Shown here: positions 14,474-38,740 of the stretch, in pieces
How the letters are laid out: every line of letters starts with the position of its first letter
Numbering within the stretch: position 1 is the stretch's first letter
Virus record (IMG/VR): IMGVR_UViG_3300001525_000208
Location: 15,019 to 79,018 of that record
From: a virus
Taxonomy: Duplodnaviria; Heunggongvirae; Uroviricota; Caudoviricetes
DNA length: 64,000 nucleotides
Strand: one strand, 5' to 3'
Notes under the pieces: model-generated
The model's input: only the letters and a program-made list of their open reading frames with translations
Database searches by the model: none
What the model was told of the DNA's origin: nothing
Program-made: the position numbers and the translations under genes

Positions 14474-14829
14474 TTATTCAAATAAATCTTGCCATCCTGT
14501 ATCAATAGCATCAATTAATTTTTTAGCTTGGATTATATAAAATCTATAATCAATTTTATAGTCTTTCATAGGTTTTTCAACATATTCATTAAAAATAGTT
14601 GCACCGTATCCAACATTCACATTACTTTGTCTTCCGTCTCCGAAATCTTTATACAATGTTCCACCATTAGTAGATATGTAATATCTAGTAGTTCTATTTA
14701 ATTTGTCTTCAACTACTTCGTCATCTCTAATAGTTCTAAACATTGCTGTAGATTTAGAATTTACTTTTAATCTTAAACAGAAATCATATATATCTGTACA
14801 ATTCATAATTGTTTCAGATATAGGAATAC
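14474..14829 (-). CDS. polB: Family-B DNA polymerase, exon 2 (C-terminal thumb region, including KxY-like KNY/TRYY motifs). The exon start is uncertain within 14802-14829.
   Basis: The MNCTDIY... frame is open upstream to about 14970. It contains an RYY..GG..YKDFGDG segment resembling the post-motif-C region of PolB. It lies immediately 3' of a group I intron. Confidence 0.55.
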
Positions 14830-15945
14830 CATATACAAAATAATTCTTTACTGCTAAGGGGACTATTCTTGCAGATGGGTCTTTATGATACTCTTTATAA
14901 ATTTCATAGTCTCCTTTTAATTTAATGTGTTCACATTCAGGAGAATTATCAGTGTATACTGCGATGTAGTTATTTCAAGTTATTCGTCTGATTTCTCAGA
15001 AGCTTGGACTATATCTTTATTATTAATTCTTATAATTCTATGTTTTTTAAAGATTACATCATTTATTTTCTTTTTATTAAATGTGGCTATTACATTTTTA
15101 AATCCTAATAATTCTAACTCTTTATATAATATATTTTCTGCAATTAAATCTCCATTAGAATTATAAATTGTATAAGTCCATTTAGTTAAATTTTTTGACA
15201 TTAATTCGCTTTGTTGAGTTTTTCGCTTGTTGTTATCTTTCCAATATTCTTTAAGTTTATCAGAATGATCTTTATGACATCCGTTTTCCCAATCTTTTTT
15301 AGCACGAATACCTATTTTTTCTTTTGTTTCTTCTGAACAAAAACATTTCCCTTTAGAATCCCATCTTAAATTATATCCTTTATTTGGATTTAAGGAATCT
15401 AATTCTTTCATCCAATATAATTCTTTTTCTGCTAAAAGTTGTTCTAAATTAGAATCTTTAATATCAAAATTTTCAACTAAATAATATTCAAAATTATCTT
15501 CTCCATATTTTTTGACAGCATTTAATAAATGTGGATTTTCATTATAATTCCTATTATCTATTTTAATGTCTGTCATATGTTGATGTAATCTTTTATAACA
15601 ATTTTTTGATTTACCGACATAGATTTTTCCATTTATAGAATTTTTTATTACATAAATTCCTGGAAAATTGCTGTTTCTTTTAATATTTTCATAAGTTATA
15701 TAATTAATTATTTATATAGCAATAAATCAAAATTTTGACATATAATTATTAAAATTCATAATACCCAGCGTTTCCATTTAAATTTTAAATGTACTCTACT
15801 CACTTCCGTTAAATAACGTGTTTTCGATAGTCTCTGAACCTTCTTCTACATAGAAGCTTGGCTGCTGATTAGTATACGATTAATCGTCACGATTTGCGCT
15901 TCAACTTTCCAGCAATTAACCGGGTTACGACGCAAATATTATCTT
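14802..15945 (-). mobile_element. Group I intron in polB carrying a GIY-YIG homing endonuclease gene. The 3' end is uncertain (14802-14829).
   Basis: Conserved group I elements were found on the minus strand:
- P-like AATTGCTGGAAAG (plus 15905-15917)
- Q-like AATCAGCAG (15860-15870)
- R GGTTCAGAGACTA (15825-15840)
- S-like AAGAATAGTCCC (14859-14870), which completes P7 (GACTA/TAGTC).
P1 has exon GACGU pairing with IGS GCGUC, with U.G at the splice site. The TAA that appears to end the polB ORF lies inside the intron. Confidence 0.7.
14980..15711 (-). CDS. GIY-YIG homing endonuclease (intron-encoded). The first in-frame ATG is at 15576, but the GIY-YIG motif lies upstream of it.
   Basis: PGIYVIKNSINGKIYVGKS is encoded at about 15610-15663, in frame with the MTD... 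ORF. The frame is open back to a TAA at 15712-15714 and contains no ATG/GTG/TTG. Confidence 0.7.
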   Translation of the reverse strand: MINYITYENIKRNSNFPGIYVIKNSINGKIYVGKSKNCYKRLHQHMTDIKIDNRNYNENPHLLNAVKKYGEDNFEYYLVENFDIKDSNLEQLLAEKELYWMKELDSLNPNKGYNLRWDSKGKCFCSEETKEKIGIRAKKDWENGCHKDHSDKLKEYWKDNNKRKTQQSELMSKNLTKWTYTIYNSNGDLIAENILYKELELLGFKNVIATFNKKKINDVIFKKHRIIRINNKDIVQASEKSDE

Positions 15946-17372
15946 ACGTCCCTCACGCACATCTTTGAGTATACAGTTTCTTCAATTGTTAGTCCCGTTT
16001 CTTCAGTTAATTGATCATTAACTTTTCTTATCTTATCTAAATCCTCTTTAGGTACATATAAGGTTTGCCCATCCGTGTTAGTCTGAATGAATTTCAGTCT
16101 AGGGCATACTTTGACCCATCTTTCTGCCCACATACAGATAAATATCTGTCCTGCAATAGTAGTTTTAAAGGTATATAATGGATCATATAAGAAGGATTTT
16201 TCCTCATTAGACTTGCCATATGTGCCATTCAAAATAAGTTTATATCCTTCAATTAAAACATTATCACGTTGATTTTTAGGCTTATGTTTTTCAGCTAATC
16301 GTGCATCTATAAATCCAATATATTGTTCATTGAATACAGGACCTAAATGTTCAGGATATAGTCCTAATGATTTTGAAATACTCGGGTAGAGCGAACCGAC
16401 ATCGTAGTCTACGATAACCCATTCGTCATTAGTATTCCAAATTCTTGGTCTAGCGCAGCCGTGAGAACCTCCAAGTCCAAAATCAAACTTATAATCGTGA
16501 AATATCACAGACTGTTGAAATTCACCTTTAATTCCTTTGATTGTGATATGTTTTACTGTATCTAAGAATTGATTAAATTCTTTAGACTCAATTTTACACC
16601 ATTTAGGAATACAATCTGATAATTTTATTCCTTCAGGTCTAGGAGTTCCACCTTGTCTTTTTAATTCATTTGGTAATATTCCTACTTTTCTTGCATATAA
16701 ATTTAAAATAAGCTCTTCTCCCATAGGTACATCACCCATATTGAGAACATTTACTTTAAATTTCTTGTTTAAATCCTGCCTAAGTTTAATTTTATTTTTT
16801 CCTTTATATAATGGATATTCCGTTTTACCGAGAGTAGTAAGGAAAAATAAATATGTGGCATAAACGTCATTCTTATTATAAGTAAGAATGCATTTTTCAT
16901 CACCTTTTTTACACCAAGTTGTATGATGAATAGGCATTTCTTCTACATTAGGCATCCTCATACATACTTCTAGGTCCTTGAGACTACATAATCTAGCTTT
17001 ATTATTGTAATGCCAGATTTTGTAAAGATCTAGCTGTTTTATGAGTACATTTCTTTCAGCAATAACAGAAAACTCTTGTTCAATTATCTCTTGTGACTTC
17101 TTATATAACTTTTGAGCTAATTCTTGCCCATCTAAGAATTCATAATCATTAATAAAATGACGTAAGAAATGATGCTCTAACGGGTAATCATATGAAAGGT
17201 TGTTGAACCCAACCTGTATTAATTTATCTCTATTTAAATGCTCATATAGTGATTTAGAGTCGTTTCTCCAATCACAAATAACAAATTGATAATACTTATC
17301 TTCTTTAGGACAATATCCTGTATAAGTAAATACATTACTTAGACATTCTAAATCGTATATTTCTAATATCAA
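15946..17372 (-). CDS. polB: Family-B DNA polymerase, exon 1, with a TTG start
   Basis: Exonuclease motifs:
- Exo I: DLE at residues 7-9
- Exo II: FNNLSYD
- Exo III: YNKND
Polymerase motifs:
- motif A: DYDVGSLYPSI
- motif B: KLILNGTYGK
- motif C-like: TNTDG
The track ORF ends at a TAA at 15939-15941, which lies inside the intron. The true exon ends after ...CVRDV at 15946. Confidence 0.8.
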
Positions 17373-17713
17373 TTCTTGTATACTTTAAATTTAGGTTCCC
17401 AAATTTCACCAATCTTACCTTTTTTGCAACCTAAACCAATCCATTTAATATCTAAGAAATGTTCAAAAATATAAGGAATAATTGTAAATACTATGTTTGG
17501 AATCTCGAAATCATTCCAATATATCATTACAAATGAATCGGTTTCTGTTTTTAAATAATATCCTCTAACTGTATGCGCCCAAGGATACCCGTAATCTGCA
17601 AACCATTCAGCATGGGACATATTTGCGTGTCTAGTATCTGAAAATTTTACTAGTAAACTATCTCCGTCTATATAAAAAGGTTTTCGTTTTTGATGAAATT
17701 CTTCTAATGTCAT
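17369..17713 (-). CDS. Hypothetical protein overlapping the polB start by 4 nt
   Basis: ORF with an ATGA/TTGA-type overlap to polB. No recognisable domain. Confidence 0.4.
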   Translation of the reverse strand: MTLEEFHQKRKPFYIDGDSLLVKFSDTRHANMSHAEWFADYGYPWAHTVRGYYLKTETDSFVMIYWNDFEIPNIVFTIIPYIFEHFLDIKWIGLGCKKGKIGEIWEPKFKVYKN

Positions 17714-18558
17714 AAAAGTATTTTAAGTTTAGTTGAATATTTATCTTTCAGTTTTTTTAATGCAGTTTCTTTAATTTGTCTTACTCTTTCAGTAGTCATT
17801 CCAAACCGTGTTCCAATTTCATCCAATGACATAGATTGAGTATTAATTCCAAAATACATTCTAACTATATCTTGTTCTCTATTACCTAAACTATTAAGAA
17901 CCTTATTAACTTCATAAACTTTAGATTCTTTTAATAAAGTATCATCAGTTTTACTATAACTAGGTAACATATCTCCAAGTGTACTTTCTTCTTCATCATC
18001 AATTGTAATATCTAAAGAAGAACATTTATTCATATATTTAAATACATCAGAAACATAATCTTCACTTGTATTCAAATATTTGGATATTTCTTTTACAGTT
18101 GGAGTTCTTTCTAATTGTTTTTCTAAAGTTGTTCTTGCTTTTTTAACTTTATTAATTTTAGTAATAAAAGTAATAGGGTATCTTATAGTTTTAGAAGCAT
18201 TATATATTGCAGCTACGATAGATTGTCTTATCCACCAAACTGCGTATGAAATAAACTTAAAACCTTTACTTCCATCATACTCTTGTGCTGCTTTTATCAA
18301 ACCTAAATTACCTTCACTTATCAAATCTTCTAAAGATAAACCTTGTCCTTGATATTGTTTAGCTACAGTAATAACAAATTTTAAATTTGATTTGACTAGA
18401 GTATTTAAAGCATCAACATCTCCATTTTTAATTCTATTAGATAATTCAATCTCTTGTTCTAAAGATAAAAAATTACATTTATAGATGTCTTTAAAATATA
18501 AACGAAGAGATTCTCTATCTGTAGGAGTAATTGATTTAGTTTTAGTTATTTTCTTCAT
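17710..18558 (-). CDS. Sigma-70 family RNA polymerase sigma factor (regions 2 and 4)
   Basis: Region 2-like: LVKSNLKFVITVAKQYQGQGLSLEDLISEGNLGLIKAAQEYD. Region 4 HTH: LDEIGTRFGMTTERVRQIKETALKKLK. Confidence 0.8.
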   Translation of the reverse strand: MKKITKTKSITPTDRESLRLYFKDIYKCNFLSLEQEIELSNRIKNGDVDALNTLVKSNLKFVITVAKQYQGQGLSLEDLISEGNLGLIKAAQEYDGSKGFKFISYAVWWIRQSIVAAIYNASKTIRYPITFITKINKVKKARTTLEKQLERTPTVKEISKYLNTSEDYVSDVFKYMNKCSSLDITIDDEEESTLGDMLPSYSKTDDTLLKESKVYEVNKVLNSLGNREQDIVRMYFGINTQSMSLDEIGTRFGMTTERVRQIKETALKKLKDKYSTKLKILL

Positions 18559-18629
18559 TTATTAATCTAATTTCTGATGTACAATTAGAATAATATTTAA
18601 GAGCTACTTTAGTATAACTAGTAACCCAT

Positions 18630-18956
18630 TTAATCGGATAATGTATTAGCATAATTAACAGTTTGTTTATATTCTAACATAAAATTAGCAAACACTTGTG
18701 CTAAATCTTCAGGAACTTCTGTATTCCAATAATAACTAAAAACATGAAATAATTCATGTAAAAATGTTTGGTACCTGTTTTCAATTTTAACAGGATACCA
18801 AACATTTTCAATTTTTACATTTTTAGCTATACAAATACAGTTTAAAGCATCGTTGAATTCACCATAAACATCACCATCATGTAGACTTTTGACTAATTTT
18901 ACAGTGAATTCAATTCCTGCTATTTTAAACTTTTCAGGTATTTGATAGTTCATCAA
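18630..18956 (-). CDS. Small protein with an HExxH motif (putative zinc metallopeptidase-like)
   Basis: FLHELFHVF contains HELFH. There is no other support. Confidence 0.3.
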   Translation of the reverse strand: MMNYQIPEKFKIAGIEFTVKLVKSLHDGDVYGEFNDALNCICIAKNVKIENVWYPVKIENRYQTFLHELFHVFSYYWNTEVPEDLAQVFANFMLEYKQTVNYANTLSD

Positions 18957-19313
18957 TTATTTTATAATAATCTTCATAAGATAAAGTTGAATTAGGAAAA
19001 TTTAATCTTGTTAAATCACGTAATTTTTCCCAAAGATTAAATATAACTTGATATACACCTGAAGGAAAATATTTATTAAGAACAAACATATCTGATTTAG
19101 ATATTTCTACAGGTGTGAATTGCAAGTAATCAAAATCTTCTAAAGTTAATAAATTAAATCCTTCATTAGTTCCAAAATGAAAACTATCTGTTAATCTTTT
19201 TAATTTAGATTTAGCATACATATAAAAATTATATGCGTCTTCATCTAATATTTCAAAGAATGGAACTTCAAATTCATCTGCCCAATTTACAGATTCATTA
19301 ATTAAATAATATT

Positions 19314-20522
19314 TCATTTTTTCAAATCCCATCTAAACACACGAAATTTAGGCTGGGTAGGAATTCCGTCCTCAGAGTAATTAAAGAAAGTACATTCTCC
19401 AATTTCGTTTCTATATTTAGAGTCAAAATTAGTTACATACTCTTCTTTTTGTTCTCTTGTTCCGCAGGGCATTGCTTCAAATGTACGGCCATCTTCCAAT
19501 TCACAAGTAAAAGTCATATCTTCTGAACCTCTTGCCCCGAGTTTATAATCTATTACTTTAAAATCTTCTGATTTATATGCTTTAATTTTAATAAGATTAT
19601 TACAACGAGCACCCACTTTATAAGCTTTAGTGGGATCAGTAATTACCGCACCTTCAAATCCGTCAGAAACCCATGCGTCGTGAAGCTTCTTCATATTATC
19701 CCAACCTGAAACGTAGGTGTGTTTTAGTAGTCTAATAGGTGCATCAGATTCATCTTCATTACTTTCATATATTGGAAAATTATGAACACGAACAAAAAAT
19801 TCTTCTAAGAATTCATATCGATCAGAAGCAATCATATCAGGATTGGATGAATCGTAGCAATCGTAAACCCAATATTGAAGCCAATCACAGTCGTAAGCAT
19901 TCTTTTCCATTCTTGCTGCACCACTTAGTTGTTGTAGAGTTTTACCTCTAACAAACAATTCTCCATCTAATATAACAGAAGGATTTTCTTGAAAGAACTC
20001 TATTAACATAGGATTATTTCGTAGATGAATAGTAGAATAATCGTATGTATCACCTCCTCTACTAGCAGTGTGTATTTCTCCATCTTTATAATAGAATAGA
20101 GCTTTAAGTCCGTCAAGCTTTCGCGATATAAGCCATTCTTTATCAAAGATTTTCTTATTAGTAACCTTATCGGCTTGTTTAGCTAATTGAGGTTTAATCA
20201 CACCAGCTTGATTAGTTTTAAGTTCTCCAAATAATTCGGATAATTCTTCTGTAGAATAACTATTAGGATGTCTTGTTAATTCAATATAACCTTTATCCTT
20301 ATACCCTTTAACAAAACTATTAAATTGAAGCAATGCTTGCTGGTTAAGAGTCCTTCCAGCTTTTCCAATTTTAATAATAGTATCAGGACTTCTAGTTACT
20401 TTACCTCTAACTTGTCCATATTCGCGAGTGATTAAAAATCCATTATCATAATCTTCATGCCAAGTTACTACTACAAATCTAAATTTATTATTAGAAGATT
20501 TACTCAACAAATATGTAATCAT
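19314..20522 (-). CDS. ATP-dependent DNA ligase (covalent nucleotidyltransferase). An RNA-ligase-type enzyme is not excluded.
   Basis: Motif I KLDGLK, motif III LDGELFV, motif IV DGFEGAVIT, motif V NLIKIKAYK. Confidence 0.65.
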   Translation of the reverse strand: MITYLLSKSSNNKFRFVVVTWHEDYDNGFLITREYGQVRGKVTRSPDTIIKIGKAGRTLNQQALLQFNSFVKGYKDKGYIELTRHPNSYSTEELSELFGELKTNQAGVIKPQLAKQADKVTNKKIFDKEWLISRKLDGLKALFYYKDGEIHTASRGGDTYDYSTIHLRNNPMLIEFFQENPSVILDGELFVRGKTLQQLSGAARMEKNAYDCDWLQYWVYDCYDSSNPDMIASDRYEFLEEFFVRVHNFPIYESNEDESDAPIRLLKHTYVSGWDNMKKLHDAWVSDGFEGAVITDPTKAYKVGARCNNLIKIKAYKSEDFKVIDYKLGARGSEDMTFTCELEDGRTFEAMPCGTREQKEEYVTNFDSKYRNEIGECTFFNYSEDGIPTQPKFRVFRWDLKK

Positions 20523-21128
20523 TTACGATAATATTTAACAATTTCCCAAAGATCATCTATAGTTTCTATTGGAATCTCATTATTATCCTCGTCCCACATC
20601 TTTAATTCAGGATTTCCAGATTTTTCATATAACCACCAATTTATATCGTCTACTCCACATTCATCAAATAAAAAATTGATAGTTTTATCAAATAAACTAG
20701 AGGCGTATTCTATCCAATCGCTTTCAAAGAGTGTAGGTACACTGAGAACTTCAGAAACTTCATCAATTCTATCTGACCATTCCAAATGTTTTGAAATAAG
20801 ATCGAAAAATTCTTCCTTAGTTATCATGTAAATATATATATTTAATACAGTTTTCTGAAAAGAAAACATCTTGTTTTACAAATGTTCTATAGTCAGAAAC
20901 TTCATTTTCTTCTAATTCTTCAGCCTTACAATTACATCTATCTTGTACCCATTCTAAATCCTCAGAGTAGCAACCTTTAAGAAATGATTTTGCGTCTTCT
21001 TCAGATTTAGTAGCATAGAGAACTTCAAATTGATTTTCTGAAGGAGTTTGCCAATTGTTAACTACAATATAGATTTCAGGACAATTTGTATTTCTAGCTA
21101 TAAATTCATTATCTATCATTGTAATATT

Positions 21129-24464: not shown

Positions 24465-24538
24465 TTAGAAGTGTTTTACTCTATCGTTAATGTCTCCAAC
24501 TCGTCCTTTACTAATTCCGTTAGTTAGAACACCTATAT
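24465..24538 (-). CDS. nrdD: nrdD exon 2 (encodes YIGVLTNGISKGRVGDINDRVKHF*)
   Basis: It completes the glycyl-radical motif RRLCG|YIG. The NrdD C-terminal ...RVKH tail is present. It is preceded by a G (omega-G) at 24539. Confidence 0.7.
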
Positions 24539-24542
24539 CATT

Positions 24543-25061
24543 TTATACCCTGCTTTTCAACATATTTATTTTATTATTAAAATAATCTTTTATATTTTTC
24601 TTTTCTATATCCGAAAGTTTATCAATTTCAGTTTGAATTGCTTTATCATTTTCTTTAAATCTAAATTCTTTTTGGAAATAAACTTCACATAAATAACGCA
24701 AATACACAGCTTCCTCTTTTTTATCAAATTGCTTAAAATAATATCTTATGTTTTTATATGTAAAATCTATTTTCCATTTAAGGTTAGATTTTAATTGAAT
24801 AACTCCTCGAAATCCTGATTTGTTATTTTTACATTTATCCATATTTAACTGATTATCTTCTTTATTTATAATTCGTAAATTTGTTTTACGATTATCTAAA
24901 GAATTTCCATTAATATGATCAATTTCTTTTCCGACAGGATTTCCTAGAATTAATCTGTGAAAATATTCTTTTTGTGAATTTTGATTGCCTGTAACTAAAT
25001 AAGGTTTTTCACCTTTATCTTTTAATACAGTTCTCCATTTAAATTGTTTTGCCTCTTTCAA
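24543..25061 (-). CDS. HNH endonuclease with AP2 DNA-binding domain (intron-encoded homing endonuclease)
   Basis: EIDHINGNSLDNRKTNL is an HNH motif and SGFRGV is AP2-like. The frame stays open upstream to about 25156. Confidence 0.7.
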   Translation of the reverse strand: MKEAKQFKWRTVLKDKGEKPYLVTGNQNSQKEYFHRLILGNPVGKEIDHINGNSLDNRKTNLRIINKEDNQLNMDKCKNNKSGFRGVIQLKSNLKWKIDFTYKNIRYYFKQFDKKEEAVYLRYLCEVYFQKEFRFKENDKAIQTEIDKLSDIEKKNIKDYFNNKINMLKSRV

Positions 25062-25158
25062 ATTATCTTTGTCGAATAAATATGTATATAATACATTTCC
25101 ATATTGATCATATGTATCAATTTCACACTTATCATCTAATATTCTTATTTCATTTGGA

Positions 25159-25320
25159 TCAAAAAACTCCTCTTGAATTTGAATCTAAATTATGACCAAA
25201 TTTAGTAAATTGATGTAAATGTTTCTTACATAAACACATATTGAATTTTTTACTAAAGCTAACAATTTTTTCATTTGAAGAAATTCCACAAATTTCGCAA
25301 TACCTAATAACTTTTCGCAT
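25159..25320 (-). CDS. Small Cys-rich (zinc-ribbon-like) ORF inside the nrdD intron (53 aa)
   Basis: MRKVIRYCEICG...CLCKKHLH. Its stop overlaps the open upstream extension of the HNH frame, offset by one frame. Confidence 0.3.
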   Translation of the reverse strand: MRKVIRYCEICGISSNEKIVSFSKKFNMCLCKKHLHQFTKFGHNLDSNSRGVF

Positions 25321-25588
25321 ATAAATATAAATTAAAATAATAATAAAGGGATTAGACTATACAATCATCTAAAATTAGATGCACCTTGGTAGTCGTTGAG
25401 AGCTTCCTTATAACTATATAAATATACGTTTATAATTTTGGGATTCCACAAAATTACAGTAGTTAATTGGCTATCTCTGCTGATTGTCCAATTTTTATAA
25501 ATTTTATTTAAAATTATAAAACTCTAAGGATTTTCCAGCATATTCGGTGTTTTCTATAAATATTACTATTTATAGGGGCAATAGGTTT

Positions 25589-27635
25589 ACCCACATAATC
25601 TTCTTATAGCATATAATTGATGCGGATTAACTTCCCCACAATTAGGGCAACTAAGTTTACCTTCAGAATCCATATGAATTTCTCCTTCATACCCACAAGT
25701 ATAACATACATCACATGAAGTAGTGTTTATTTCACAATACATCATATTATCATATATACACTTAAGAATATTAAGAATAGCTTCAGGATTCTTCCTTACA
25801 TCAGAACATTCTACGTAGCTTATGCTGCCTCCTGATGAATATTCTTGAAAAGGAGCTTCAAATTCTATCTTTGAATAACCATCAATAGGATATGTAACAG
25901 GAATATGATAACTATTAGTTATATAATCTCTATCATTTACCATATACTCTTGAGGAAATTGTTTCAAAGCTTTAGCAAAAGTAGTTGTCGTACTTTCAGC
26001 GGGAGAACCATATAAAGATAAAGCTAATCCGTATTTTTCTTTATTGTAATTGGCTCTATCATACATATGTTTAATAATATCTAACCCCATTTGTTGTCCT
26101 TCTTTAGTAGGATATTCTTTTCCAAAATGATATACACATTCTGAAATTCCCATATATCCTATAGAAGCAGAACAATATCCATCTTTAATTGCTTCACCTA
26201 TTTTAGAACCTCTAGGCAATCTTGCAAAAGCACCGTAGTTCCATAAAATAGGAGCAACATCAGTACTTGTTTCAGAGATTTGACTATAAATTCTAAATTG
26301 TTCAGCTGAGATACTATCTATGATAGTATCTAATTTACTTAAGAAATCATTATAATCTTTAGATTCTAATGCAAAGTAAGGTAAATTAATAGAAATGACT
26401 CCAACGTTTAATCTGCCCCAAAATTTATAATTTCCTTCACTATCTTTCCAAGGATGAAGGAAGCTGCGACATCCCATGCTTGGAAATACATTTCCCTCTT
26501 TATATTTCTTCATTATCTTAGCAGAAATATAATCAGGTACCATTCTTTTACAAGTACATTCAGCTGCAAGTTGAGTCACATAATAATACTTAGTATCAGA
26601 TGTAATATTATCTTCATCAAGTACATATAGAATTTTAGGAAAAGCAGGATTAATATTTTGTCCTGTTGGACCTTTCATTCCTTGTATTCGTTGTTTAAAC
26701 AACTCACATATGAGAGCTACATTCTCTTGAACATACTCTTCATTCTCGTGTATATAACAAAATACTGAGCAGAAAGGGGATTGCCCATTTGTACTCGTCA
26801 TTGAGTTGAGTTGATACAACAACGTTTGCATCGAATCTTTAATTTCTTTCTCTAATGCTTCTTCTACTAATTGCTTTTTAACGTAGTCAGGGATAGTATC
26901 ATAGCTTCCGAAGAATTTTTCATAATACTCTTTACTAATTCTTACAAACGGCGCTAAATGAGACAAGGTAATACTATTTCCACCATATTGACTTGAACTT
27001 ACCGCTGTAAGTATTTGAGTTGCAATTGTAGTAGCTGTTCTAAGACTGTGAGGCTTTTCAATTTTCTTTCCGTTAACTACAGTACCATTTTGAAGCATAT
27101 CTTCCAAATTAATTAATGAACAATTTGTAATACCATGCATAAAACGATAATCTGTATCATGGATATGAACTGCACCTTTTTTATGCAATTCTAATAGTTT
27201 AGGATCACATTCTACTTCTTTATAAAGTTTTTTACATACTTCGCCAGCAATAAGATCACGCATCACATTAAATTGTTTTGCATCCTTATTACCATTTTCA
27301 GTAGTTACTTCATTAGTTTTACCTGAAACTATTTCTTCTATAGTTGTATTGAATTTACTATTATCTGATAGATTTCTAGCTAAAGCGTGTTTATATCTAT
27401 AAAGAATATACTCTTTAGCTATATCAGGATAATCAAAATCCATTAGCAGTTCTTCTATCTGATCTTGAATTTCTTCAACACTAATATCTTCCCAGATAAT
27501 TACTGAATTTACAATGTCTTGTAACGTTTCATTTGATATTACAACATTACAAGACAAAAAAGCCTTTTGAATAGCAGAATATACTTTCCGCTTATCAAAA
27601 GGCTCTTTTGTTCCATTTCTTTTTAAAATGTTCAT
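25589..27635 (-). CDS. nrdD: Anaerobic ribonucleoside-triphosphate reductase NrdD, exon 1
   Basis: Length about 680 aa. C-terminal Zn ribbon CDVCYTCG...CPNCG. It ends ...AIRRLCG immediately before an intron-borne TAA, which truncates the conserved RxCGY glycyl-radical motif. Confidence 0.8.
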
Positions 27636-32431: not shown

Positions 32432-32946
32432 AACAACTTCGAAAAATCATCAAAAGCTGACATCATAAATAGCTCATAAGCGTTCTCAATTTCATCAATT
32501 TTAAGACTATTTACGCGTCCTACAGGACCCCAAAATTTATTAGTGGGAGAATCCATCAACAGACATGGAATACCTTTTGTATTCAAGTCTATAAAATTTT
32601 TAATTGAGTCATCTATGAAAACATCAACTTTACCTTTTAAAGCATCAGCTTTACTTAAATGATACCCAGGAACTTGGTAAAGTGGACTAAACAAATCATT
32701 ATTGGTCAAATACTTTTTAGTCCACCTTTTATTATTTACTCTAGCGCTACAAAACAGTCTTGGTTCAAAATTTGGTAATTGTAATACAGGTAATTCTAAC
32801 CAAAAATCCCTTTCGTGTATTAAAATATTATTTACATTTCGAGTAATAGCCCAATCATATTTTGGCCATTTTTTAAATCTTTTTAGATAACCGTAATCCC
32901 AATCTGCAATTACATTATCTATATCTAAACCAATTCTTAATTTCAT
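32428..32946 (-). CDS. HAD-superfamily 5'(3')-deoxyribonucleotidase-like phosphatase
   Basis: N-terminal DxDxV motif (LDIDNVIAD) and C-terminal FIDDS. Confidence 0.55.
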   Translation of the reverse strand: MKLRIGLDIDNVIADWDYGYLKRFKKWPKYDWAITRNVNNILIHERDFWLELPVLQLPNFEPRLFCSARVNNKRWTKKYLTNNDLFSPLYQVPGYHLSKADALKGKVDVFIDDSIKNFIDLNTKGIPCLLMDSPTNKFWGPVGRVNSLKIDEIENAYELFMMSAFDDFSKLL

Positions 32947-33735
32947 TACATTAATTCAACATCCATAATTTCTCCTAAAAGAAATCCACAATCGTAAGCT
33001 TCGTCTAGAAACTCTTCCCAATCACTACAATAAGGAGTATCATGGTCTCTAGCAAATTTTGAAATGTATTTGTCTTTAGCTTCATTCATTGAACGAGCCA
33101 TAACATAATCTGTCCAAACAACATTTTCATTTAAATCAGCTACAGCTATTATATATTTATTCATATCTTAGTTATTATAAGATTTAAGTAATTCGTAGAA
33201 AAAGTTTTTATCAATCATAACCAATTCACCAGCACTGCTCATATTTACTTGGCCTTCTTTAACTTCTTGACGATTCCACATTATTACAAAAGGTTTATCT
33301 TCAAGAGGACAAGCACTTCTAATTTTAAAATAATTAGGAGTGTTGGTAGTACATTTAAGTTGACAATAGAAAGGTAATTTATTTTCTGTATCTACTAAAT
33401 CAACTTTCATATCATCCATTCTTTTGGACTGACTTCTAGATGTTACAACACCTGTGTAACCAAGTTCATTTAATTCGTGAGCTATTTTCAATTCATAGTT
33501 GTTACCTTTACTTTTAGAATAAGAACCTGAACGTCTTTTCTTTTTTGCTTTTTCTTGGTCACAAAGCGGACATCCTGAATGAGTTAATACTTTTTTAGCT
33601 ATTTGATGAACTTCTCCGTGAATAGGACATTTATAAATTATGTCTTTATCTAAACCCTAATAATTACTTTCTGAAAAATCAAATTTATCTCCGTGTTTAA
33701 GCTTTACCTTTTCAACAAAAGACTCTATAGTCTGT

Positions 33736-34740
33736 TTAGCCATTGTTTTTAAGTTTTAAAATATTTGTTTTTAAAAATTCTATTGTTTTTTCTCTTCCGT
33801 ATTTCTTATAGAAATCACTAATATCTTTAGCTTTAAAAGTATTTGGAATAAAAAAATAATTTAGTTCAGGATAAGAATGTCTTATCTTTGCTAAATTGTA
33901 TTTACCTGCTCTATCATTATCATAGTGAACTACAATATATTTGAACCGAGATTTTAAATCGTCTAATACTTTTTGTTCTAAAAATAAAGTTTCTGAATTA
34001 GGAGCAATAGCAGTAATTCCTAAAGAATAATAAGTCATTGTATCTTTCATGCTTTTAGTAATTACTAAAAGTTTACCTTCTTTAGGAAGTTGTTTGAAAC
34101 CTTGTATTTTCTTTGCAGGATAATTACCTAAAAATCTATAAGATTTTCGTTTAGGAAAATACATTCTCCATAATTCAATGTCCTTTTGCTTTCCTCCATA
34201 ATATCCGTAAATTGGACAATTTTTAGAGGAAGTACTTATTAAACTACCATTAAGAAATACGTTTTTACAAGAATAAACATTAAATTTCTTTAAAATTTTT
34301 AATGTAATACCATATTTAGACCACCATTCAAGTTCATCTTCCGAAAACTCTTTTATTTCTGCTTGTAAAAATGTACTACCTTTAGTATCTATTTCTTTTA
34401 CAGGAATAATTTTTGTTTTCTTTACAACTTGTTCTTCTATTAGATTAAAATCACTTGCAATTATTTTTAATGCTTTATAGTAAGAACAATTATATTTTTC
34501 CATTACTACATTAAAACAATTATAATGTTTATTAGTAGCAAAATCATGGAAATAAACTATCCCTGACTTAGATTTATAAACACCACAAGTAGGATTTTTA
34601 TCATCCCTAAAAGGAGAAACAAAGAGTTTTTTAGTTTCTATTGCAAAACCTAAATAATGACTTAATATAGTTTCTTGATTGACTTTAGATAATATAAAGT
34701 CTTTAGTGATTTTTGATCCTATACTAAAATTAAAATCCAT
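33736..34740 (-). CDS. DNA primase (Toprim domain)
   Basis: N-terminal Cys/His zinc-binding region. Toprim-like LLVITKSMKDTMTY ... VVHYDNDRAGK (DxD). Confidence 0.55.
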   Translation of the reverse strand: MDFNFSIGSKITKDFILSKVNQETILSHYLGFAIETKKLFVSPFRDDKNPTCGVYKSKSGIVYFHDFATNKHYNCFNVVMEKYNCSYYKALKIIASDFNLIEEQVVKKTKIIPVKEIDTKGSTFLQAEIKEFSEDELEWWSKYGITLKILKKFNVYSCKNVFLNGSLISTSSKNCPIYGYYGGKQKDIELWRMYFPKRKSYRFLGNYPAKKIQGFKQLPKEGKLLVITKSMKDTMTYYSLGITAIAPNSETLFLEQKVLDDLKSRFKYIVVHYDNDRAGKYNLAKIRHSYPELNYFFIPNTFKAKDISDFYKKYGREKTIEFLKTNILKLKNNG

Positions 34741-34825
34741 ATCTTTCTAATTAGAATTTTAAATTTAGTATTATTTTAAAACAAAAACAAGGATACTAAA
34801 TAAGTACCCTTGTTTTATATTTTAA

Positions 34826-35602
34826 TTAGAGAATGCTATCAAAATCAATATCACTAGTATCTGTGGAAGTTACTTCAGGTACTAATACAGTATCAGCATT
34901 TGGAGCTATAGCTGACATTACAGTAGGCTTAGCCGTCTTATATGCGGCAGCTTGACGTGCTTCATAATCAGAGAATTCTACATTATCTCCAATAAAATTA
35001 TTACGAACATAGCAATTACCTTCCTTACTAATACCACAAACGTTAGGAATTTGTGCGTAAACAGTACCGTTATTATTACGTCCAGTAAGTTTCAATTTAG
35101 TTTTAGCACCTTTCTTAGCATTTGCTACAGTAAGTACAAGCTTGATAAAGTCTTCCATCGTTTTAATCTTCGCAGCTTGGATTTTAAGTTTTTCATATCC
35201 CGAAGGATTAACTACAGCTGCTACCTGAAGCAATGTCCATTTAAATTCCTCAAATCGAGAAGGCATTTCATATTCATGACCATCCTTGTTAGTAATAACC
35301 TTACGAGTAATATCTTCTTGAGTTGAAGGAATAAATAGATTAGTAGAAAATTTACCTTTCTCTCCACTAAAGCTAAGCTTAATTGTATTATAAGTAGCTT
35401 CAGGGTCTTTCTTACCTTTCATTGTAACTTGTTCCAATCCATCAAATGTTACATCATAAATGTCCCAAGGTTTAAGAGCACCCGATTTACTAATTGCTGA
35501 ATTTTCACTAATACCTCTAAAATCAAGATTAAGATCCATGTTAAATATATTTTTAAAATTAAATATTAAAATCAAAAGAAGAAATTTCTGTAGTATCTTC
35601 AA
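34826..35602 (-). CDS. Hypothetical protein with a hydrophobic N-terminus
   Basis: 258-aa ORF. The N-terminus MKILQKFLLLILIF is signal/TM-like. Confidence 0.35.
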   Translation of the reverse strand: MKILQKFLLLILIFNFKNIFNMDLNLDFRGISENSAISKSGALKPWDIYDVTFDGLEQVTMKGKKDPEATYNTIKLSFSGEKGKFSTNLFIPSTQEDITRKVITNKDGHEYEMPSRFEEFKWTLLQVAAVVNPSGYEKLKIQAAKIKTMEDFIKLVLTVANAKKGAKTKLKLTGRNNNGTVYAQIPNVCGISKEGNCYVRNNFIGDNVEFSDYEARQAAAYKTAKPTVMSAIAPNADTVLVPEVTSTDTSDIDFDSIL

Positions 35603-36121
35603 CTAAATCATCTAAATCTAAATTATCAACAAACTCGTCAATTACCTCAGGTTTAGCAAGATTTTCATCTTCTATAATTTCGGGTTCTTTATCACCTTTA
35701 AGAATGAAAATACCCTTTCTATTATCGTGAGGAATTAAATCAAATGTTGTACCATATTCTACGAGTTGATCATGTGATTTACCTCTATAAGCAACGGTAT
35801 TAGATTTGCTTAAACGATTTCCTCCCTTAGTACCAAAACTTTCATCAGAACCAATAATAGGTATAAATTGATTACCTTGTTTATCATATTTAATATCTAT
35901 TCTATCATCAGGCTCTACGTTTAAAGCTTTAAGAGCAGCTGAATTAAGCTCATACTTAGTATCTAAAAGTATAAGTTTCGGATTTGGATCTGTATCCTCT
36001 ACTTTAGATGTTTTAGACTTAGAAGTCTTTTTGGTTTTAACAGACTTGACTTCTCCTGTTTCTGTATTTACTACATCAAATTCACCTGTTGTAGTATCTA
36101 CAATAAGATTAAATGTCAATT

Positions 36122-36820
36122 TCATTCGTCTTCGCCGTTTTCAAATTGATTAATTCTATCAAGAACCGATTTCATATTAGGTTCAATATACTTATCGGGG
36201 AAACAACCTTCAGTTGAACGACAAGTATCATAACCATCAGTACGAGTTTTAAATCGATACTTGATAGATTCATCATCATCAATATATCGTTCTGCATACA
36301 AAATATATGAGAACAAACCATCAATATTAACAGTACTGTTTAACAGTTTACCTGTGGTGTAAAGACGCCATTCAGGTTCCATATCAGTACCATTGTTTAT
36401 AATATGAGAAATGAGAACTACATTAAGATCATCTCTCAGATTTTGTGCAGATTGAATCAAATCATAGTAATTCTTTGCACTAACTGAAAACTTTTCATAG
36501 CCTTTAGTTAATGCATTAACCATAGCTTCATTACTCATAAGATAGTTACAATCATCCAAAATAATCGTTTTAATTTCTGGACGTGTATTTGAAATTATTT
36601 GCAACATCTGAGTAATTTGAGGATAACTATTACTAGTAAGCCAATTTCCAGTAAGTTTCTTATCTTTTACTGCAACTTTTTTGTATTTTTTTCTAAAACC
36701 AGGAATCTGCAATTGCTTATTAGTACAACTAATAATAAATGTAGATTCAGGTTCCAAATACTTCAAAGATGTTGATTTACCAGTATTAGAAAGTCCTCCA
36801 AGTGCAATAAGATTGCTCAT
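36122..36820 (-). CDS. P-loop NTPase (Walker A/B)
   Basis: GGLSNTGKSTS (Walker A) and IILDDCN (Walker B). Confidence 0.45.
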   Translation of the reverse strand: MSNLIALGGLSNTGKSTSLKYLEPESTFIISCTNKQLQIPGFRKKYKKVAVKDKKLTGNWLTSNSYPQITQMLQIISNTRPEIKTIILDDCNYLMSNEAMVNALTKGYEKFSVSAKNYYDLIQSAQNLRDDLNVVLISHIINNGTDMEPEWRLYTTGKLLNSTVNIDGLFSYILYAERYIDDDESIKYRFKTRTDGYDTCRSTEGCFPDKYIEPNMKSVLDRINQFENGEDE

Positions 36821-37164
36821 TATAAAATAAAATTTAATTGTTGTTTATTTATATCATCTTGTTTTTCATTTTCTTGTTTAATCTCAGAATTTACTTCATC
36901 TTTTTCAAGAATCCAATTAGGATTCTTGTATTTATCATAATCATAGATTTCATCAGGTAAAGGAAGTTCTTTAAAATAATTAATCCAACCGTAAAAACTA
37001 CATCCGATTTCAACATCACAGTCACCGAAACGATTCTTTAAAACCATAATGCTTCGGAATACACTTTCTAATTGTTCTATGTTATATTTGCGATAAGTTT
37101 TAAGCGCGTCGCGAAAAGGATTATATAAAGCAATCATAACATTACTGTCTTGTACGGTATTCCC
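36820..37164 (-). CDS. dnaB: DnaB-like replicative helicase, exon 2 (C-terminal region following motif H4). The 5' boundary is uncertain.
   Basis: QDSNVMIALYNPFRD...FRSIMVLKNRFGDCDVEIGCSFYGWINYF matches the DnaB C-terminal region (DADVVMFLYRDEYY ... IIAKQRNGPTG ... FTRFE). The frame is open from 37200. The track ORF starts at a TTG at 37179. Confidence 0.6.
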   Translation of the reverse strand, partial: GNTVQDSNVMIALYNPFRDALKTYRKYNIEQLESVFRSIMVLKNRFGDCDVEIGCSFYGWINYFKELPLPDEIYDYDKYKNPNWILEKDEVNSEIKQENEKQDDINKQQLNFIL

Positions 37165-37993
37165 TGTATCTTTAGCCAAATTTGTTATCTTAAAGGCTCT
37201 TTATCCTTTAATTCTATACTTTTATTTATATGTATAGTTCAGACTATATCTTTCATTCATTTTATATTCTCACGAATTTTACTCTGAACAGTGCCCCGCT
37301 TTCGTGGATGATTTTATAGCCTCGTCTTTCTCGTTAGGCATCACATCTAGTCGTTTAGCTTTTTCCTCAATTTCTTGAGGGTTTAGCACAAGATTGTCCT
37401 TTTCAGGAGTTTCCCTGTTTAACGGAGTTTTATAATGACACTTATAACTTATATTTCATGCAAGATACTATATAAGGCTCTATCAATCTTTTAAATTTAG
37501 GATATTCTTTACTTGGAATATATACAAGATTATCGGACTTATTATTTAAAGTTATAAAAATATTAAATTTAACTTTAAACATTTCTTTTATTAATTCTAA
37601 CTCTTGTTTAGAAAAATTATTAGTACATAACATACATCCTCCATAAGGATTACATTTATACCCATCATCCATATACCAGATAGCTAGTCCAAGAGGTTCT
37701 ATTTTAAATAAGTCATCCTTATATACTGTTTTCACTGGACGATACCAATTATAAAACATAGCATTTAATGATATAGAGGATTTAGTATAAAAAGAATAAT
37801 TATAATATTCAGGATTTTTTCTTCCGTTTGGTGGAAGTTTGTTATTTTTTCTAATTTTTGCAATAGTAGATTCAGAATCACCTGAAATTCTGGATATTTC
37901 AGAATCTTTTAATCCTTGTTCATAAAATTCTAAAAATTGATAGATTTCAAAATAGTTTTTCTTAAATTTCTATAAATTAATTATTTTATCATT
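37165..37993 (-). mobile_element. Group I intron in the dnaB-like helicase gene with a LAGLIDADG ORF in its 5' region. Boundaries are approximate.
   Basis: Minus-strand elements:
- S AAGATATAGTCTGAAC (37237-37252)
- R-like ACGACTAGA (37346-37354)
- GTTCAGAG (37283-37290)
- P-like AATTGAGGAAAAAG (37358-37371)
- P9-like hairpin CTATAC...GTATAG
The helicase is broken exactly in motif H4. Exons 1 and 2 are in different frames, which excludes an intein. Confidence 0.6.
37442..37759 (-). CDS. LAGLIDADG homing endonuclease (intron-encoded). Its frame is continuous upstream through an HTH-like segment to the TAG that ends helicase exon 1.
   Basis: LGLAIWYMDDGY is a LAGLIDADG motif. The upstream in-frame extension (37760-37969) encodes ...LKDSEISRISGDSESTIAKIRKNN (HTH-like). 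Confidence 0.6.
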   Translation of the reverse strand: MFYNWYRPVKTVYKDDLFKIEPLGLAIWYMDDGYKCNPYGGCMLCTNNFSKQELELIKEMFKVKFNIFITLNNKSDNLVYIPSKEYPKFKRLIEPYIVSCMKYKL

Positions 37994-38740
37994 AATACTA
38001 AAGGCCGATTTTCCCTGTTTGAATCTCTCGATATTACCTTGTTCGCGATTAGCTTGTTGGATTACGACAGGACTTATCTTACATTTCTCTCTTAGTACTA
38101 CTAAGTATGCAGATAAGTTATCGATTTCTTTCTTTAAAGTATTCCCTTGCTGAGGTCTTATTAATCCTATATGATCTATAATTACATTATATATCAAATT
38201 AGGATTATAAGGAGTATAAATGAGTCGGTTTTCACTTTCGGAAAAAGTTCCCATTTCCTCAAGTCGTTTCTTTAAAATTGAATAAACTGTATTAGCATTT
38301 ACTTGTTTATCGTAAATTTCCAGTTTACTTTCAATTTTATCTATCCAAGGTTTACACTTTTTGATTAATTCGTAATATTCCTCAGATAATACATAATCTC
38401 GTTCTCTAGATAGTATCTTTTTATAAGATAGTTCAATTCCATAGGTTTCAAATAAATACATAGACAATAACTTTATAAACAACGAAGTTGCATTCATTTC
38501 TAGAGAGAAATAAATAATTTTAAAGTCATCATCGTCAATATGAGCTTGTAAAGGTTTAAAAACATACGAGTAAAGTGCAAAACTCGTCTTACCTGCACCC
38601 GAATTACTCAGGATAAGTGTGTAAGTTTCACGAGTTACACCATCTATTATGCTTTCTAACTTAGGAAGACCCATAGGTATACCTTTATTTAAACCTAATC
38701 TACCTCTTTCAATTTCATTAAAGACACTGTCTGAAATCAA
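37994..38740 (-). CDS. dnaB: DnaB-like replicative helicase, exon 1 (RecA-like ATPase core)
   Basis: Walker A LSNSGAGKTSF, Walker B/H2 IIDHIGLI, and H3 VVIQQANREQGN. It stops within H4 (KSAFSIN...) at the intron boundary. Confidence 0.7.

Follow-up and report, generated by a model that had tools for sequence, protein, structure and literature searches.

Phage T4 carries group I introns in its td, nrdB and nrdD (sunY) genes, with the endonucleases I-TevI, I-TevII and I-TevIII. Group I introns with HNH-type endonucleases occur at conserved sites in the DNA polymerase and RNR genes of the Bacillus and Staphylococcus phages SPO1, Bastille and Twort, according to the references of a 2014 review (PMC3984707), which places every phage intron then known in protein-coding genes. 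In the human gut, the Zeta/Delta crAss-like phages (145-192 kb) contain up to 14 introns per genome and combine suppressor tRNAs with stop-codon recoding in late genes, while their PolB is broken into several fragments by group I introns whose endonuclease ORFs include LAGLIDADG members, and the intron ORFs themselves contain recoded stops (Yutin et al. 2021, PMC7886860, in the sections available).

The window analysed here, the whole 64-kb stretch of DNA, resembles the latter phages in encoding a primase whose best annotated matches are from crAss-like phages, in having related contigs of 150-187 kb, in the presence of a tRNA(CUA) together with in-frame TAGs in genes, and in containing four group I introns, in polB, nrdD, dnaB and tRNA-Leu(UAA), all located with their split genes on the minus strand (Table 1). 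In some of its genes TAG is decoded as sense. Taken with the gut origin, this one protein (the primase), the contig sizes and the recoding suggest that the source is probably a crAss-like phage, large and divergent, that infects gut Bacteroidales. The introns in Yutin et al. (2021) were located via endonuclease domains, without ribozyme structures or splice sites in the sections available (PMC7886860), whereas both are defined here, and nrdD, dnaB and tRNA genes, which are hosts here, are not among the intron hosts named in those sections.

As in T4 (PMC3984707), three group I introns occur in nucleotide-metabolism genes of a single phage, GIY-YIG or HNH ORFs occupy peripheral loops, a stop codon lies just within the intron and nrdD serves as a host gene; one T4 endonuclease is likewise defective. 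The window differs from T4 in phage lineage and insertion sites, with its nrdD intron falling exactly between the glycyl-radical Gly and the adjacent Tyr, and in its LAGLIDADG ORF and its dnaB and tRNA hosts. In SPO1, Bastille and Twort, the hosts are a family A polymerase and a class I RNR (nrdE), rather than the family B polymerase and class III RNR (nrdD) found here. The "unusually high" load claimed in a first-pass annotation therefore stands against the classical phages but not against the Zeta/Delta phages (PMC7886860) or relatives of this phage, among which higher loads occur, with nrdD in at least seven pieces in one of them (L047). Because such a load has already been described for large crAss-like phages, the locus is a good new example rather than a new kind.

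Predicted group I introns in polB, nrdD and dnaB

The first-pass annotation placed an intron in each of polB, nrdD and dnaB, which span 14474..38740 as given beforehand, and the boundaries, in-frame splicing, motif restoration and covariance models agree in confirming, at sequence level, that each gene is split by a group I intron with a homing-endonuclease gene, for which self-splicing is predicted. All four introns in the window are preceded by U and terminate in G, and the spliced coding sequences of the three protein genes are multiples of three. Intron removal restores the blocks RD/VNNY, RxCG/YIG and SIND/AKDxGN (the slash marks the junction), and the comparison with intron-less relatives proposed at the outset showed these uninterrupted at all three sites (28-82% identity). 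Neither stops nor frameshifts occur in the exons, and the functions are essential and single-copy within the window.

Table 1. Coordinates of the interrupted genes, introns, core elements and endonuclease ORFs in the window
Feature	Position	Strand	Description	Basis
polB exon 1	17372..15946	-	475 codons + 2 nt, ends ...GACGU	ORF list
polB group I intron	15945..14976	-	970 nt, ends ...CUUG	RF00028 + element reading
polB intron core elements	P 15917..15906, Q 15870..15861, R 15839..15828, S 15017..15006	-		
GIY-YIG homing-endonuclease gene	15692..14980	-	P8 loop of polB intron	Pfam PF01541, 39.2 bits
polB exon 2	14975..14474	-	starts A AAT AAC TAC = (V)NNY	in-frame join
nrdD exon 1	27635..25589	-	ends ...RRLCG + first nt of Tyr	
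nrdD group I intron	25588..24539	-	1050 nt, ends ...AAAUG	model R1
nrdD intron elements	P2 25575..25554, P 25544..25532, Q 25485..25476, R 25400..25390, P8 25381..25366, S 25364..25354	-		
HNH (HNH_3) homing-endonuclease gene	25320..24543	-	P9 region of nrdD intron	Pfam PF13392, 30.8 bits
nrdD exon 2	24538..24465	-	YIGVLTNGISKGRVGDINDRVKHF followed by stop	
dnaB exon 1	38740..37988	-	251 codons, ends ...SIND	Pfam DnaB_C
dnaB group I intron	37987..37177	-	811 nt, ends ...AUUUG	RF00028
dnaB intron core elements	P 37422..37409, Q 37395..37386, R 37359..37348, S 37252..37241	-		
LAGLIDADG ORF	37969..37442	-	175 open codons	Pfam PF03161 (LAGLIDADG_2), 69.4 bits
dnaB exon 2	37176..36820	-	starts AKDTGNTVQDSNVMIALY	
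tRNA-Leu(UAA) exon 1	55139..55105	-	acceptor, D arm, 5' anticodon stem, ends GUAGACUU	sequence
[quoted passage not shown]
tRNA intron elements	P2 54615..54600, P3 54591..54587, P 54584..54572, Q 54550..54541, R 54515..54504, S 54469..54458	-		
HNH endonuclease ORF	55071..54583	-	within tRNA intron, probable P1 loop; open frame from 55071, one TAG	
tRNA-Leu(UAA) exon 2	54434..54383	-	starts AAAAUCUAC; variable arm, T arm, acceptor	

The PolB motifs DYDVGSLYPS, KLILNGTYG and TNTDG can be read directly in the translation of exon 1; a Pfam search returned no match for polB, and the spliced product gives a single continuous alignment, covering 98% of its length, with hundreds of phage DNA polymerases. 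The insertion site is the invariant RD/VNNY block, approximately 35 residues past motif C, which is uninterrupted in seven relatives (L001-L005, L009 and L012). P1 is formed by GACGU/GCGUC (IGS 15933..15929), and two P7.1/P7.2-like hairpins lie between P7 and P3' (15818..15775), giving an IA-like appearance by eye. The Q-P6-R signature of this intron was found in more than 120 viral contigs. The GIY-YIG gene is frameshifted, with ATG 15692 and the first ~9 codons out of frame with the GIY...YVG domain (ORF 15576..14980), and an intact homologue in L322, which begins MKIKIEHSFPGIYAIRN, agrees with the two-frame reconstruction of the window copy.

The first exon of nrdD matches the Pfam models NRDD (458.8 bits), ATP-cone and Gly_radical (model positions 8-100 of 106), and the second, of only 24 codons, lacks a start codon. 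The junction RLCG/YIG bears out the proposed location at the glycyl radical, being at the glycyl-radical Gly itself; CG/YIG is uninterrupted in L016, L017 and L019, while homologous introns occur at the identical site in L045 and L047. Unspliced read-through would meet a TAA at the junction, its U supplied by the exon and its two A's by the intron. P1 pairs GGGUAA with UUGCCC (25581..25576). The HNH gene, which has a Cys-rich N-terminal part, is frameshifted at a T6 run (25166..25161) and so divided into two ORFs (25320..25159 and 25061..24543); its L045 orthologue is a single intact ORF of ~240 aa, and the L047 copy is frameshifted at another position. Pfam upheld the three proposed endonuclease classes, GIY-YIG, HNH and LAGLIDADG, but not the AP2 domain assigned to the second: only HNH_3 was detected in the window copy, and AP2 in the L045 orthologue scored 26 bits, under the 33.3-bit cut-off.

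In dnaB, the junction SIND/AKDTGN aligns to LSD/LRESG of the G40P helicase (3bh0), in agreement with the proposed insertion at motif H4, and IND/AKD is uninterrupted in L014 and L015 (79-82% identity). P1 is formed by UAAUGAU/GUCAUUA with the IGS at 37439..37433, which places the LAGLIDADG ORF in the P1 loop; an insert separates P7 from P3', and two 3' hairpins follow S. The ORF shares its frame with dnaB exon 1, a TAG (37972..37970) being the sole separator. Its first canonical start is ATG 37759, with none upstream of most of the ORF, and the Pfam model is matched at positions 54-168 only.

The core elements fared unevenly against covariance models. With Rfam Intron_gpI (RF00028; gathering score 50 bits), neither a search at the gathering threshold nor an E-value scan of 26 kb found anything, no single match reached 50 bits in any of the four introns and there was no match on the nrdD intron; once the scan was narrowed, the other three scored 39-46 bits. 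In scans of ~1 kb these were 39.3 bits (E 3e-8, 15980..15739) and, for the second half, 22.1 bits (E 0.0044, 15050..14987) in polB, and 45.3 bits (E 3.6e-10, 37484..37219) in dnaB. The misses are a sensitivity problem, caused by the AT-rich composition of the introns and their interruption by ORFs. A custom model (R1), built from 20 unrelated phage introns and independent of the window, matched the nrdD intron at 134.6 bits in a whole-window search (E 1.5e-31, 25553..25350). The nrdD family alignment (A2) has 95.8% of its cells paired versus 35-41% with partners slid, 31 of the 47 pairs show compensatory change, and the window intron forms 46 of the 47. P1 and the exon sequence change in concert (GGGU/GCCC, GGAU/GUCC, GGAGGU/GCCUCC). 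Family covariation refers to the nrdD and tRNA types, the polB and dnaB introns being judged on single sequences and Rfam.

An intron within tRNA-Leu(UAA)

The HNH ORF at 54583..54873, initially described as free-standing, is only the C-terminal part of an endonuclease ORF located in the fourth group I intron. This intron interrupts the anticodon loop at the classical 34/35 site (CUU/u...g/AAAA); with its intron option ARAGORN reported an interrupted tRNA at 54383..55139, and the spliced sequence was recognised as an 87-nt tRNA-Leu(taa) with a long variable arm. RF00028 scored 46.5 bits (E 1.5e-10, 54630..54438). Of the cells in the family alignment (A5), 99.6% are paired versus 29-44% when slid, with compensatory change in 20 of 35 pairs, and the window intron retains the core pairs of its family. 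The P1 guide is probably GAGU at 54622..54619, a weak pairing of 4 bp.

Known tRNA-Leu(UAA) introns share both the insertion point and the compact core lacking a P7-P3' insert, and an HNH endonuclease gene has been reported in one from Bacteroidota, but the window gene is phage-borne. No report of a phage tRNA intron later than the 2014 review was found in the literature searched. Among tRNA introns, 321 of 333 are without an endonuclease gene (PMC13011429). The homologues of the HNH (169 aa, 73-89% identity) are carried by the same tRNA intron in L208-L212 and MAG contigs, and this intron has been assembled in more than 20 independent contigs. By alignment, the window copy is missing its first ~8 codons, including the ATG, and its TAG occupies a position that is Gln in all homologues. 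Its intron has also lost ~90 nt at the 5' end relative to L208 and L209, and a second, intact tRNA-Leu(UAA) is present.

Probable homing, endonuclease decay and alternative explanations

The core structures, U(-1)/terminal-G boundaries, exact motif restoration and existing intron-less alleles point with high probability to a crAss-like phage with four predicted self-splicing group I introns acquired by homing. In each, a peripheral loop of the ribozyme core (P1-P9) houses the homing-endonuclease gene: P8 in polB, the P9 region for nrdD, P1 in dnaB and probably also P1 in the tRNA. By the established group I mechanism, the RNA would fold after transcription, an external guanosine would attack the U-G pair in P1, and the freed 5' exon would attack past the terminal G and join the exons, yielding intact PolB, NrdD, DnaB and tRNA-Leu. 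The introns would have arrived when an endonuclease cut the intron-less allele of a co-infecting relative and repair copied the intron into it, the target being unable to change because a catalytic motif is encoded there. The GIY-YIG and both HNH ORFs look disabled, two by frameshift and one by start loss, and the LAGLIDADG ORF may be, given that no canonical start lies upstream of most of it, while the ribozyme cores look intact. Damaged endonucleases with intact cores are expected late in the homing cycle, when the ribozyme would be retained through selection on the host gene as the endonuclease decays.

Lesions in at least three of the four endonuclease ORFs, the shortened tRNA intron and the intact second tRNA-Leu(UAA), which makes the interrupted copy dispensable, would also suit introns that are real by descent but of which at least one no longer splices, the host genes being pseudogenes and the metagenomic genome itself defective or mis-assembled. 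This is improbable: only endonuclease ORFs carry lesions, in keeping with the homing cycle, the family pairs are kept in the nrdD and tRNA cores, and the exons of the three single-copy essential genes are undamaged. An assembly that joins strains with and without the introns into chimeras, or errors in homopolymers, could be suspected from the probably metagenomic source, the lack of a record for any tested window protein in an exact-match index and the homopolymer position of the nrdD HNH frameshift. The endonuclease frameshifts, in particular the last, could be assembly errors, but as an origin of the introns artefact is extremely improbable, with exon-intron boundaries that are base-exact, independent assembly of the nrdD intron at the same site in two other contigs and the recurrence of the tRNA intron.

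Simple insertion of endonuclease genes, with separate polypeptides reassembling without RNA splicing as for nrdA and gene 43 of some T4-related phages, would account for endonuclease ORFs between gene halves and could make use of the downstream starts listed for dnaB exon 2 (TTG 37179) and polB (ATG 14806). However, every ORF is flanked by a ribozyme core with covariance-model support and, in the nrdD and tRNA types, covariation, and exact in-frame restoration under the U/G rule in four of four cases is not expected of simple insertions; such a history is very unlikely, falling between the two preceding alternatives in probability. The polB ATG, the first in exon 2, lies 56 codons in, well beyond the VNNY block, which would be lost, and in nrdD, with no start in exon 2, the radical Gly would be parted from its adjacent Tyr. 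With no usable start ahead of the conserved blocks in the second exons, splicing of the predicted introns would be needed for both polB and nrdD.

Interrupted genes and their predicted splicing

By its ORF list, the region from 14.4 to 38.8 kb of the window is occupied on the minus strand by genes for replication and nucleotide metabolism. Three of them (polB, nrdD and dnaB) are interrupted, and a tRNA-Leu(UAA) gene is interrupted as well (Table). All four inserts follow a U and end in G, and their removal yields coding sequences of 1929 (polB), 2121 (nrdD) and 1110 nt (dnaB), all multiples of three, in which motifs that are uninterrupted in relatives are restored, as well as a tRNA that folds as tRNA-Leu(UAA). 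ARAGORN identifies the latter in the joined halves as an 87-nt tRNA-Leu(UAA) and, with its intron option, as an interrupted gene. The core elements P, Q, R and S are discernible by eye in the right order in the polB, nrdD and dnaB inserts. In the P1 helices of polB (GACGU/GCGUC), nrdD (GGGUAA/UUGCCC) and dnaB (UAAUGAU/GUCAUUA), likewise drawn by eye, the 5' splice site is marked by a U-G wobble. That of nrdD (GGGU/GCCC) covaries with the exon across its intron family, and that of the tRNA intron is a weak guess comprising a 4-bp ACUU/GAGU pairing only. The polB and dnaB introns look IA-like, judging from hairpins inserted between P7 and P3', none of which occur in the nrdD or tRNA introns.

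An intein reading is rejected, since the polB, nrdD and dnaB inserts do not keep the reading frame and contain many stops. A group II reading is rejected as well, as there is no reverse-transcriptase ORF and the core is of group I. The sequence features support the identification of all four inserts as group I introns, with splicing predicted. The first-pass annotation had proposed such introns in polB, nrdD and dnaB, and the in-frame joins, P1 helices, cores and covariance models bear it out for each gene.

Table. Positions of the interrupted genes and of neighbouring features in the window
Feature	Position	Strand	Remarks
polB 5' part	17372..15946	-	Reading frame stops two codons past ...VRDV
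polB insert, between exons	15945..14976	-	ORF with GIY-YIG domain
polB 3' part	14975..14474	-	Frame picks up at NNYIAVY...
nrdD 5' part	27635..25589	-	Ends ...RRLCG; TAA arises across junction
nrdD 3' part	24538..24465	-	74 nt, about 1 kb on, coding for YIGVLTNGISKGRVGDINDRVKHF and stop; directly upstream of nrdG
dnaB 5' part	38740..37988	-	Ends ...FSIND
dnaB 3' part	from 37176	-	Resumes with AKDTGNTVQDSNVMIALY
Interrupted tRNA-Leu(UAA) region	55180..54340	-	5' half GGCTCGATGGCGAAATAGGTAAACGCAGTAGACTT; 670 nt including HNH ORF; then AAAATCTACTG..., long variable arm, T arm, acceptor stem
Interrupted tRNA gene, ARAGORN intron option	54383..55139
Second tRNA-Leu(UAA), intron-less	57636-57720	-	Same anticodon loop as interrupted copy
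tRNA-like element	about 54170-54215	-	Acceptor-like stem and T arm, GCTGTGATGGTCAATTATAGAGTTCGACTCTCTATACAGCA; by eye
tRNA	56990-57062	-	Unassignable by ARAGORN (four-base 'ttat' anticodon call); Rfam tRNA 57.4 bits
RAGATH-1 hammerhead ribozyme	58137-58228	-	65.2 bits (gathering score 56.3), E 1e-8
tRNA with anticodon CUA	62720-62794	+	Amber suppressor
Recoded frame	1..3075	+	Open only with TAG as sense; 14 in-frame TAGs
Recoded frame	62199..60946	-	Open only with TAG as sense; 5 in-frame TAGs

Covariance models and the sensitivity of Rfam scans

The Rfam group I intron model (RF00028) matches nothing over the whole window at the gathering threshold. A scan of 13.5-40 kb with E values as high as 10 allowed is also empty, and scans of about 1 kb are needed to reveal the cores. 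In such scans the 5' two-thirds of the polB intron are matched at 39.3 bits (E 3e-8) and its P8'-P7'-P9 segment at 22.1 bits (E 0.0044), the two matches being separated by the endonuclease ORF. The dnaB intron is matched at 45.3 bits (E 3.6e-10), and the tRNA intron at 46.5 bits (E 1.5e-10; 54630..54438, directly past the HNH ORF). Each single match falls below the 50-bit gathering score, and the nrdD intron yields none even in a scan of this size. Since narrow scans recover three of the four introns, the misses in wide scans are attributed to speed filters, to the AT-richness of the introns and to the ORFs inserted in them. With default settings the Rfam model thus overlooks phage introns of this AT-rich, ORF-split class, so that gene calls in such phages will be systematically wrong, with split polB, nrdD and dnaB genes, 'missing' tRNAs and 'free-standing' HNH genes.

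Covariation was counted for two families, the nrdD-type and the tRNA-type. Scanning with the 15-mer AATCAGCAGAGATAG gave about 120 matches, which is about chance level given the length of the query and the size of the collection. The pattern of R...S elements from the nrdD intron, used instead, led to 28 more viral loci. In an alignment of 24 nrdD-type sequences, with helices P2, P3, P4, P5, P5a, P6, P6a, P7 and P8 drawn, standard pairs fill 95.8% of cells, as against 35-41% when the partners are slid by 1-3 columns. Compensatory change occurs in 31 of the 47 pairs, the observed values are reached in none of 500 shuffles, and the window's intron makes 46 of the 47 family pairs. A custom covariance model (R1), built from 20 nrdD-type introns with the window and two same-site orthologues left out, matches the nrdD intron at 25553..25350 over its full length (134.6 bits, E 1.5e-31). 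For the tRNA-type core (15 sequences), 99.6% of cells are paired, against 29-44% when slid, with compensatory change in 20 of 35 pairs. The cores that the first-pass annotation had read in the three protein-coding genes are thus supported by covariance models, RF00028 for polB and dnaB and R1 for nrdD. Further R/S pairs sought by regular expression in the window, non-exhaustively, revealed no convincing fifth intron.

Insertion sites, endonuclease genes and apparent TAG recoding

Intron-less relatives, a comparison that the first-pass annotation had suggested, define the three protein-coding sites. Residues 5-633 of the spliced PolB form one tblastn piece against hundreds of phage polymerases, and the IMG/VR relatives with 61-65% identity are uninterrupted. 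The junction falls in an invariant RD|VNNY, kept down to 37% identity, about 35 residues past motif C (TNTDG), and is inferred from the motif order in family B polymerases to be the KxY region at the palm-thumb border. A phmmer search of spliced PolB against PDB sequences gave no meaningful match, and the polB region matched none of 50,697 phage records by megablast. Two proteins of the window were also looked up by exact sequence and neither is on record. The polB genes of other related contigs contain inserts elsewhere, at residues ~130 (L006), ~378 (L011) and ~436 (L007), with the window's site uninterrupted; in the 273-nt insert of L007 the P, Q, R and S elements are clear. The dnaB gene is continuous in two contigs with 79-82% identity (L014, L015; SIND|AKDSGN), and its junction aligns with LSD|LRESG in motif H4 of the G40P helicase, in agreement with the H4 location first proposed.

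The nrdD junction, RxCG|YIG, lies one base into the codon for the Tyr that follows the radical Gly, so that the glycyl-radical location also holds. The gene is uninterrupted in contigs L016 and L017, and the same Gly|Tyr site holds homologous introns in contigs L045 and L047. By splitting the radical-bearing Gly from the neighbouring Tyr, this site presents a clean case of an endonuclease target that is unable to mutate. The L045 nrdD (3001-7340) contains three insertions, at residues 387, 603 and 682. In L047 (IMGVR_UViG_3300014039_000013, 160 kb) tblastn finds the gene, at 600-7300, in at least seven pieces, with insertions after residues ~285, 337, 388, 410, 603 and 682, an extreme intron load for a single gene. 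Some of the L047 and L045 inserts carry endonuclease ORFs, with R- and S-like elements visible, and such elements are also seen by eye in the ORF-less inserts of relatives. As RF00028 gave no match on ten intron-bearing relatives and 6.7 kb of L047, the extra insertions there are called introns from the visible R and S elements alone. An insert of ~265 nt at nrdD residue ~392 is found in many gut-phage genes of 44% identity. Estimates of intron load in this lineage have up to now relied mainly on endonuclease domains. For four introns, the present analysis gives predicted splice sites exact to the base, along with structures and homing sites, and it adds alleles that lack introns or have been invaded several times, with which they can be compared.

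The first-pass annotation assigned the intron ORFs of polB, nrdD and dnaB to three endonuclease families. Pfam confirms GIY-YIG (PF01541, 39.2 bits against a 22.6-bit cut-off), HNH_3 (30.8 against 24.8 bits) and LAGLIDADG (PF03161, 69.4 against 25 bits), while the AP2 domain ascribed to the nrdD HNH ORF is unconfirmed, being unreported in the window's ORF at E up to 1 and reaching 26 bits, below its 33.3-bit cut-off, in the L045 orthologue. The LAGLIDADG match covers only model positions 54-168 of 168, and the ORF has one motif (LAIWYMDDG), no canonical start before residue 71 and, by eye, an apparent N-terminal helix-turn-helix; a protein of this composition could act as a homodimer.

At least three endonuclease genes, the GIY-YIG, the nrdD HNH and the tRNA-intron HNH, appear to have decayed. 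The ATG and first ~9 codons of the GIY-YIG gene (15692...) are out of frame with the domain, and an intact homologue in contig L322 (MKIKIEHSFPGIYAIRN) agrees with a two-frame reconstruction of the window copy. The tRNA-intron HNH gene is without its first ~8 codons, in an intron ~90 nt shorter in its 5' part than in contigs L208 and L209. The nrdD HNH frameshift lies at a T6 run (25161-25166), and assembly error at homopolymers is an alternative explanation for the endonuclease lesions. The L045 orthologue of this gene is intact and that of L047 is shifted elsewhere, pointing to independent lesions. The lesions are confined to the endonuclease ORFs, with exons and cores intact, a distribution that fits the phase of the homing cycle in which the endonuclease decays. 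Reading the nrdD HNH as a single 263-codon frame with TAG as sense is rejected, because it gives an N-terminal part unlike the L045 orthologue, which the other frame resembles.

The phage appears to use TAG as Gln in some genes, given its suppressor tRNA, two frames open only with TAG as sense, and a TAG in the tRNA-intron HNH gene where every homologue has Gln. In the HNH gene of L208 (167 kb; about 1985-1995) an in-frame TAG occurs elsewhere (ETxDVEVG), where the catalogued protein P0007 has Q, so that relatives share the TAG recoding. The frame of dnaB exon 1 continues into the LAGLIDADG ORF across one TAG, five codons beyond the 5' splice site. A coupling of TAG suppression to intron-endonuclease expression and splicing, with stop recoding as a gate, is a speculative and improbable arrangement. 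Under it, tRNA(CUA) would read TAG as Gln late in infection and ribosomes would continue beyond dnaB exon 1 into intron sequence, giving a fusion of the DnaB N-terminus with LAGLIDADG and an unfolded ribozyme; homing would be switched on and the early helicase off in one step.

Phage lineage and the intron in tRNA-Leu(UAA)

The best annotated matches of the primase are crAss-like phages (35-37% identity), the matches of the large recoded ORF are all human-faecal phage records without annotation, and the sources are human gut, with related contigs of 150-187 kb. Yutin et al. 2021 (PMC7886860) describe the Zeta-group crAss-like phages as having genomes of 145-192 kb with suppressor tRNAs, and as carrying group I introns and inteins at an 'unprecedented density', with as many as 14 introns in one genome, a PolB split into four fragments and intron ORFs with recoded stops. 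The window, from a putative crAss-like phage, fits this description in its primase, human-gut origin, related-contig sizes, TAG recoding and tRNA(CUA). The presence of several endonuclease-bearing group I introns in the replication and ribonucleotide reductase genes of one phage has long been known from T4, Twort and SPO1-type phages (PMC3984707), and higher densities are known in such gut phages. The load that the first-pass annotation regarded as unusually high is therefore ordinary for this lineage.

Of the four introns, the one in the tRNA gene is the least expected. The HNH gene at 54583..54873, previously taken as free-standing, is borne by this intron, which raises the count from three introns to four. 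Its junction, CUU/u...g/AAAA, is the classical 34/35 site of tRNA-Leu(UAA). According to a 2014 review (PMC3984707), every phage intron known at the time interrupted a protein-coding gene, although phages have many tRNA genes. A phage tRNA intron that bears an endonuclease gene contradicts this generalisation; the literature searched contained no later description of a group I intron in a phage tRNA. A 2026 survey of complete bacterial genomes lists endonuclease genes in 12 of 333 tRNA introns, one class among them being HNH in tRNA-Leu(UAA) of Bacteroidota (PMC13011429). The window's intron belongs to the same element family, and Bacteroidota is the putative host phylum.

There are more than 800 close homologues of the HNH protein, mostly of 169 aa. 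All those inspected are encoded within tRNA genes interrupted in the same way. Some are on ENA contigs, including one of 167 kb, and others on GTDB MAG contigs with the labels Bacteroides, Bacteroidales or Paludibacteraceae, of which several measure 140-186 kb. Since contigs labelled Bacteroidales bear introns of the phage intron's family, a further speculative and improbable idea is that phage tRNA genes serve as the vehicle by which endonuclease-bearing tRNA introns move between hosts. In two MAG contigs (L213, 186 kb; L214, 140 kb) the same HNH-intron family is found in a tRNA with a 3' exon starting AAGCTC, which ARAGORN calls tRNA-Leu(tag), and the element is thus not limited to the UAA isoacceptor. 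In L208 and L209 (about 1420-1500), a TTTG...TAnnTTTG motif resembling the Bacteroidetes promoter consensus is seen by eye ahead of the ATG of the intact HNH gene; the corresponding stretch is absent, with the start codon, from the window's intron.

The window's second tRNA-Leu(UAA) differs from the interrupted copy in its anticodon stem (TAGCA/TGCTA versus GTAGA/TCTAC) and may thus not be a target of the HNH endonuclease. A tRNA-like element is situated just downstream of the interrupted gene, and the tRNA-rich region contains the RAGATH-1 hammerhead ribozyme.
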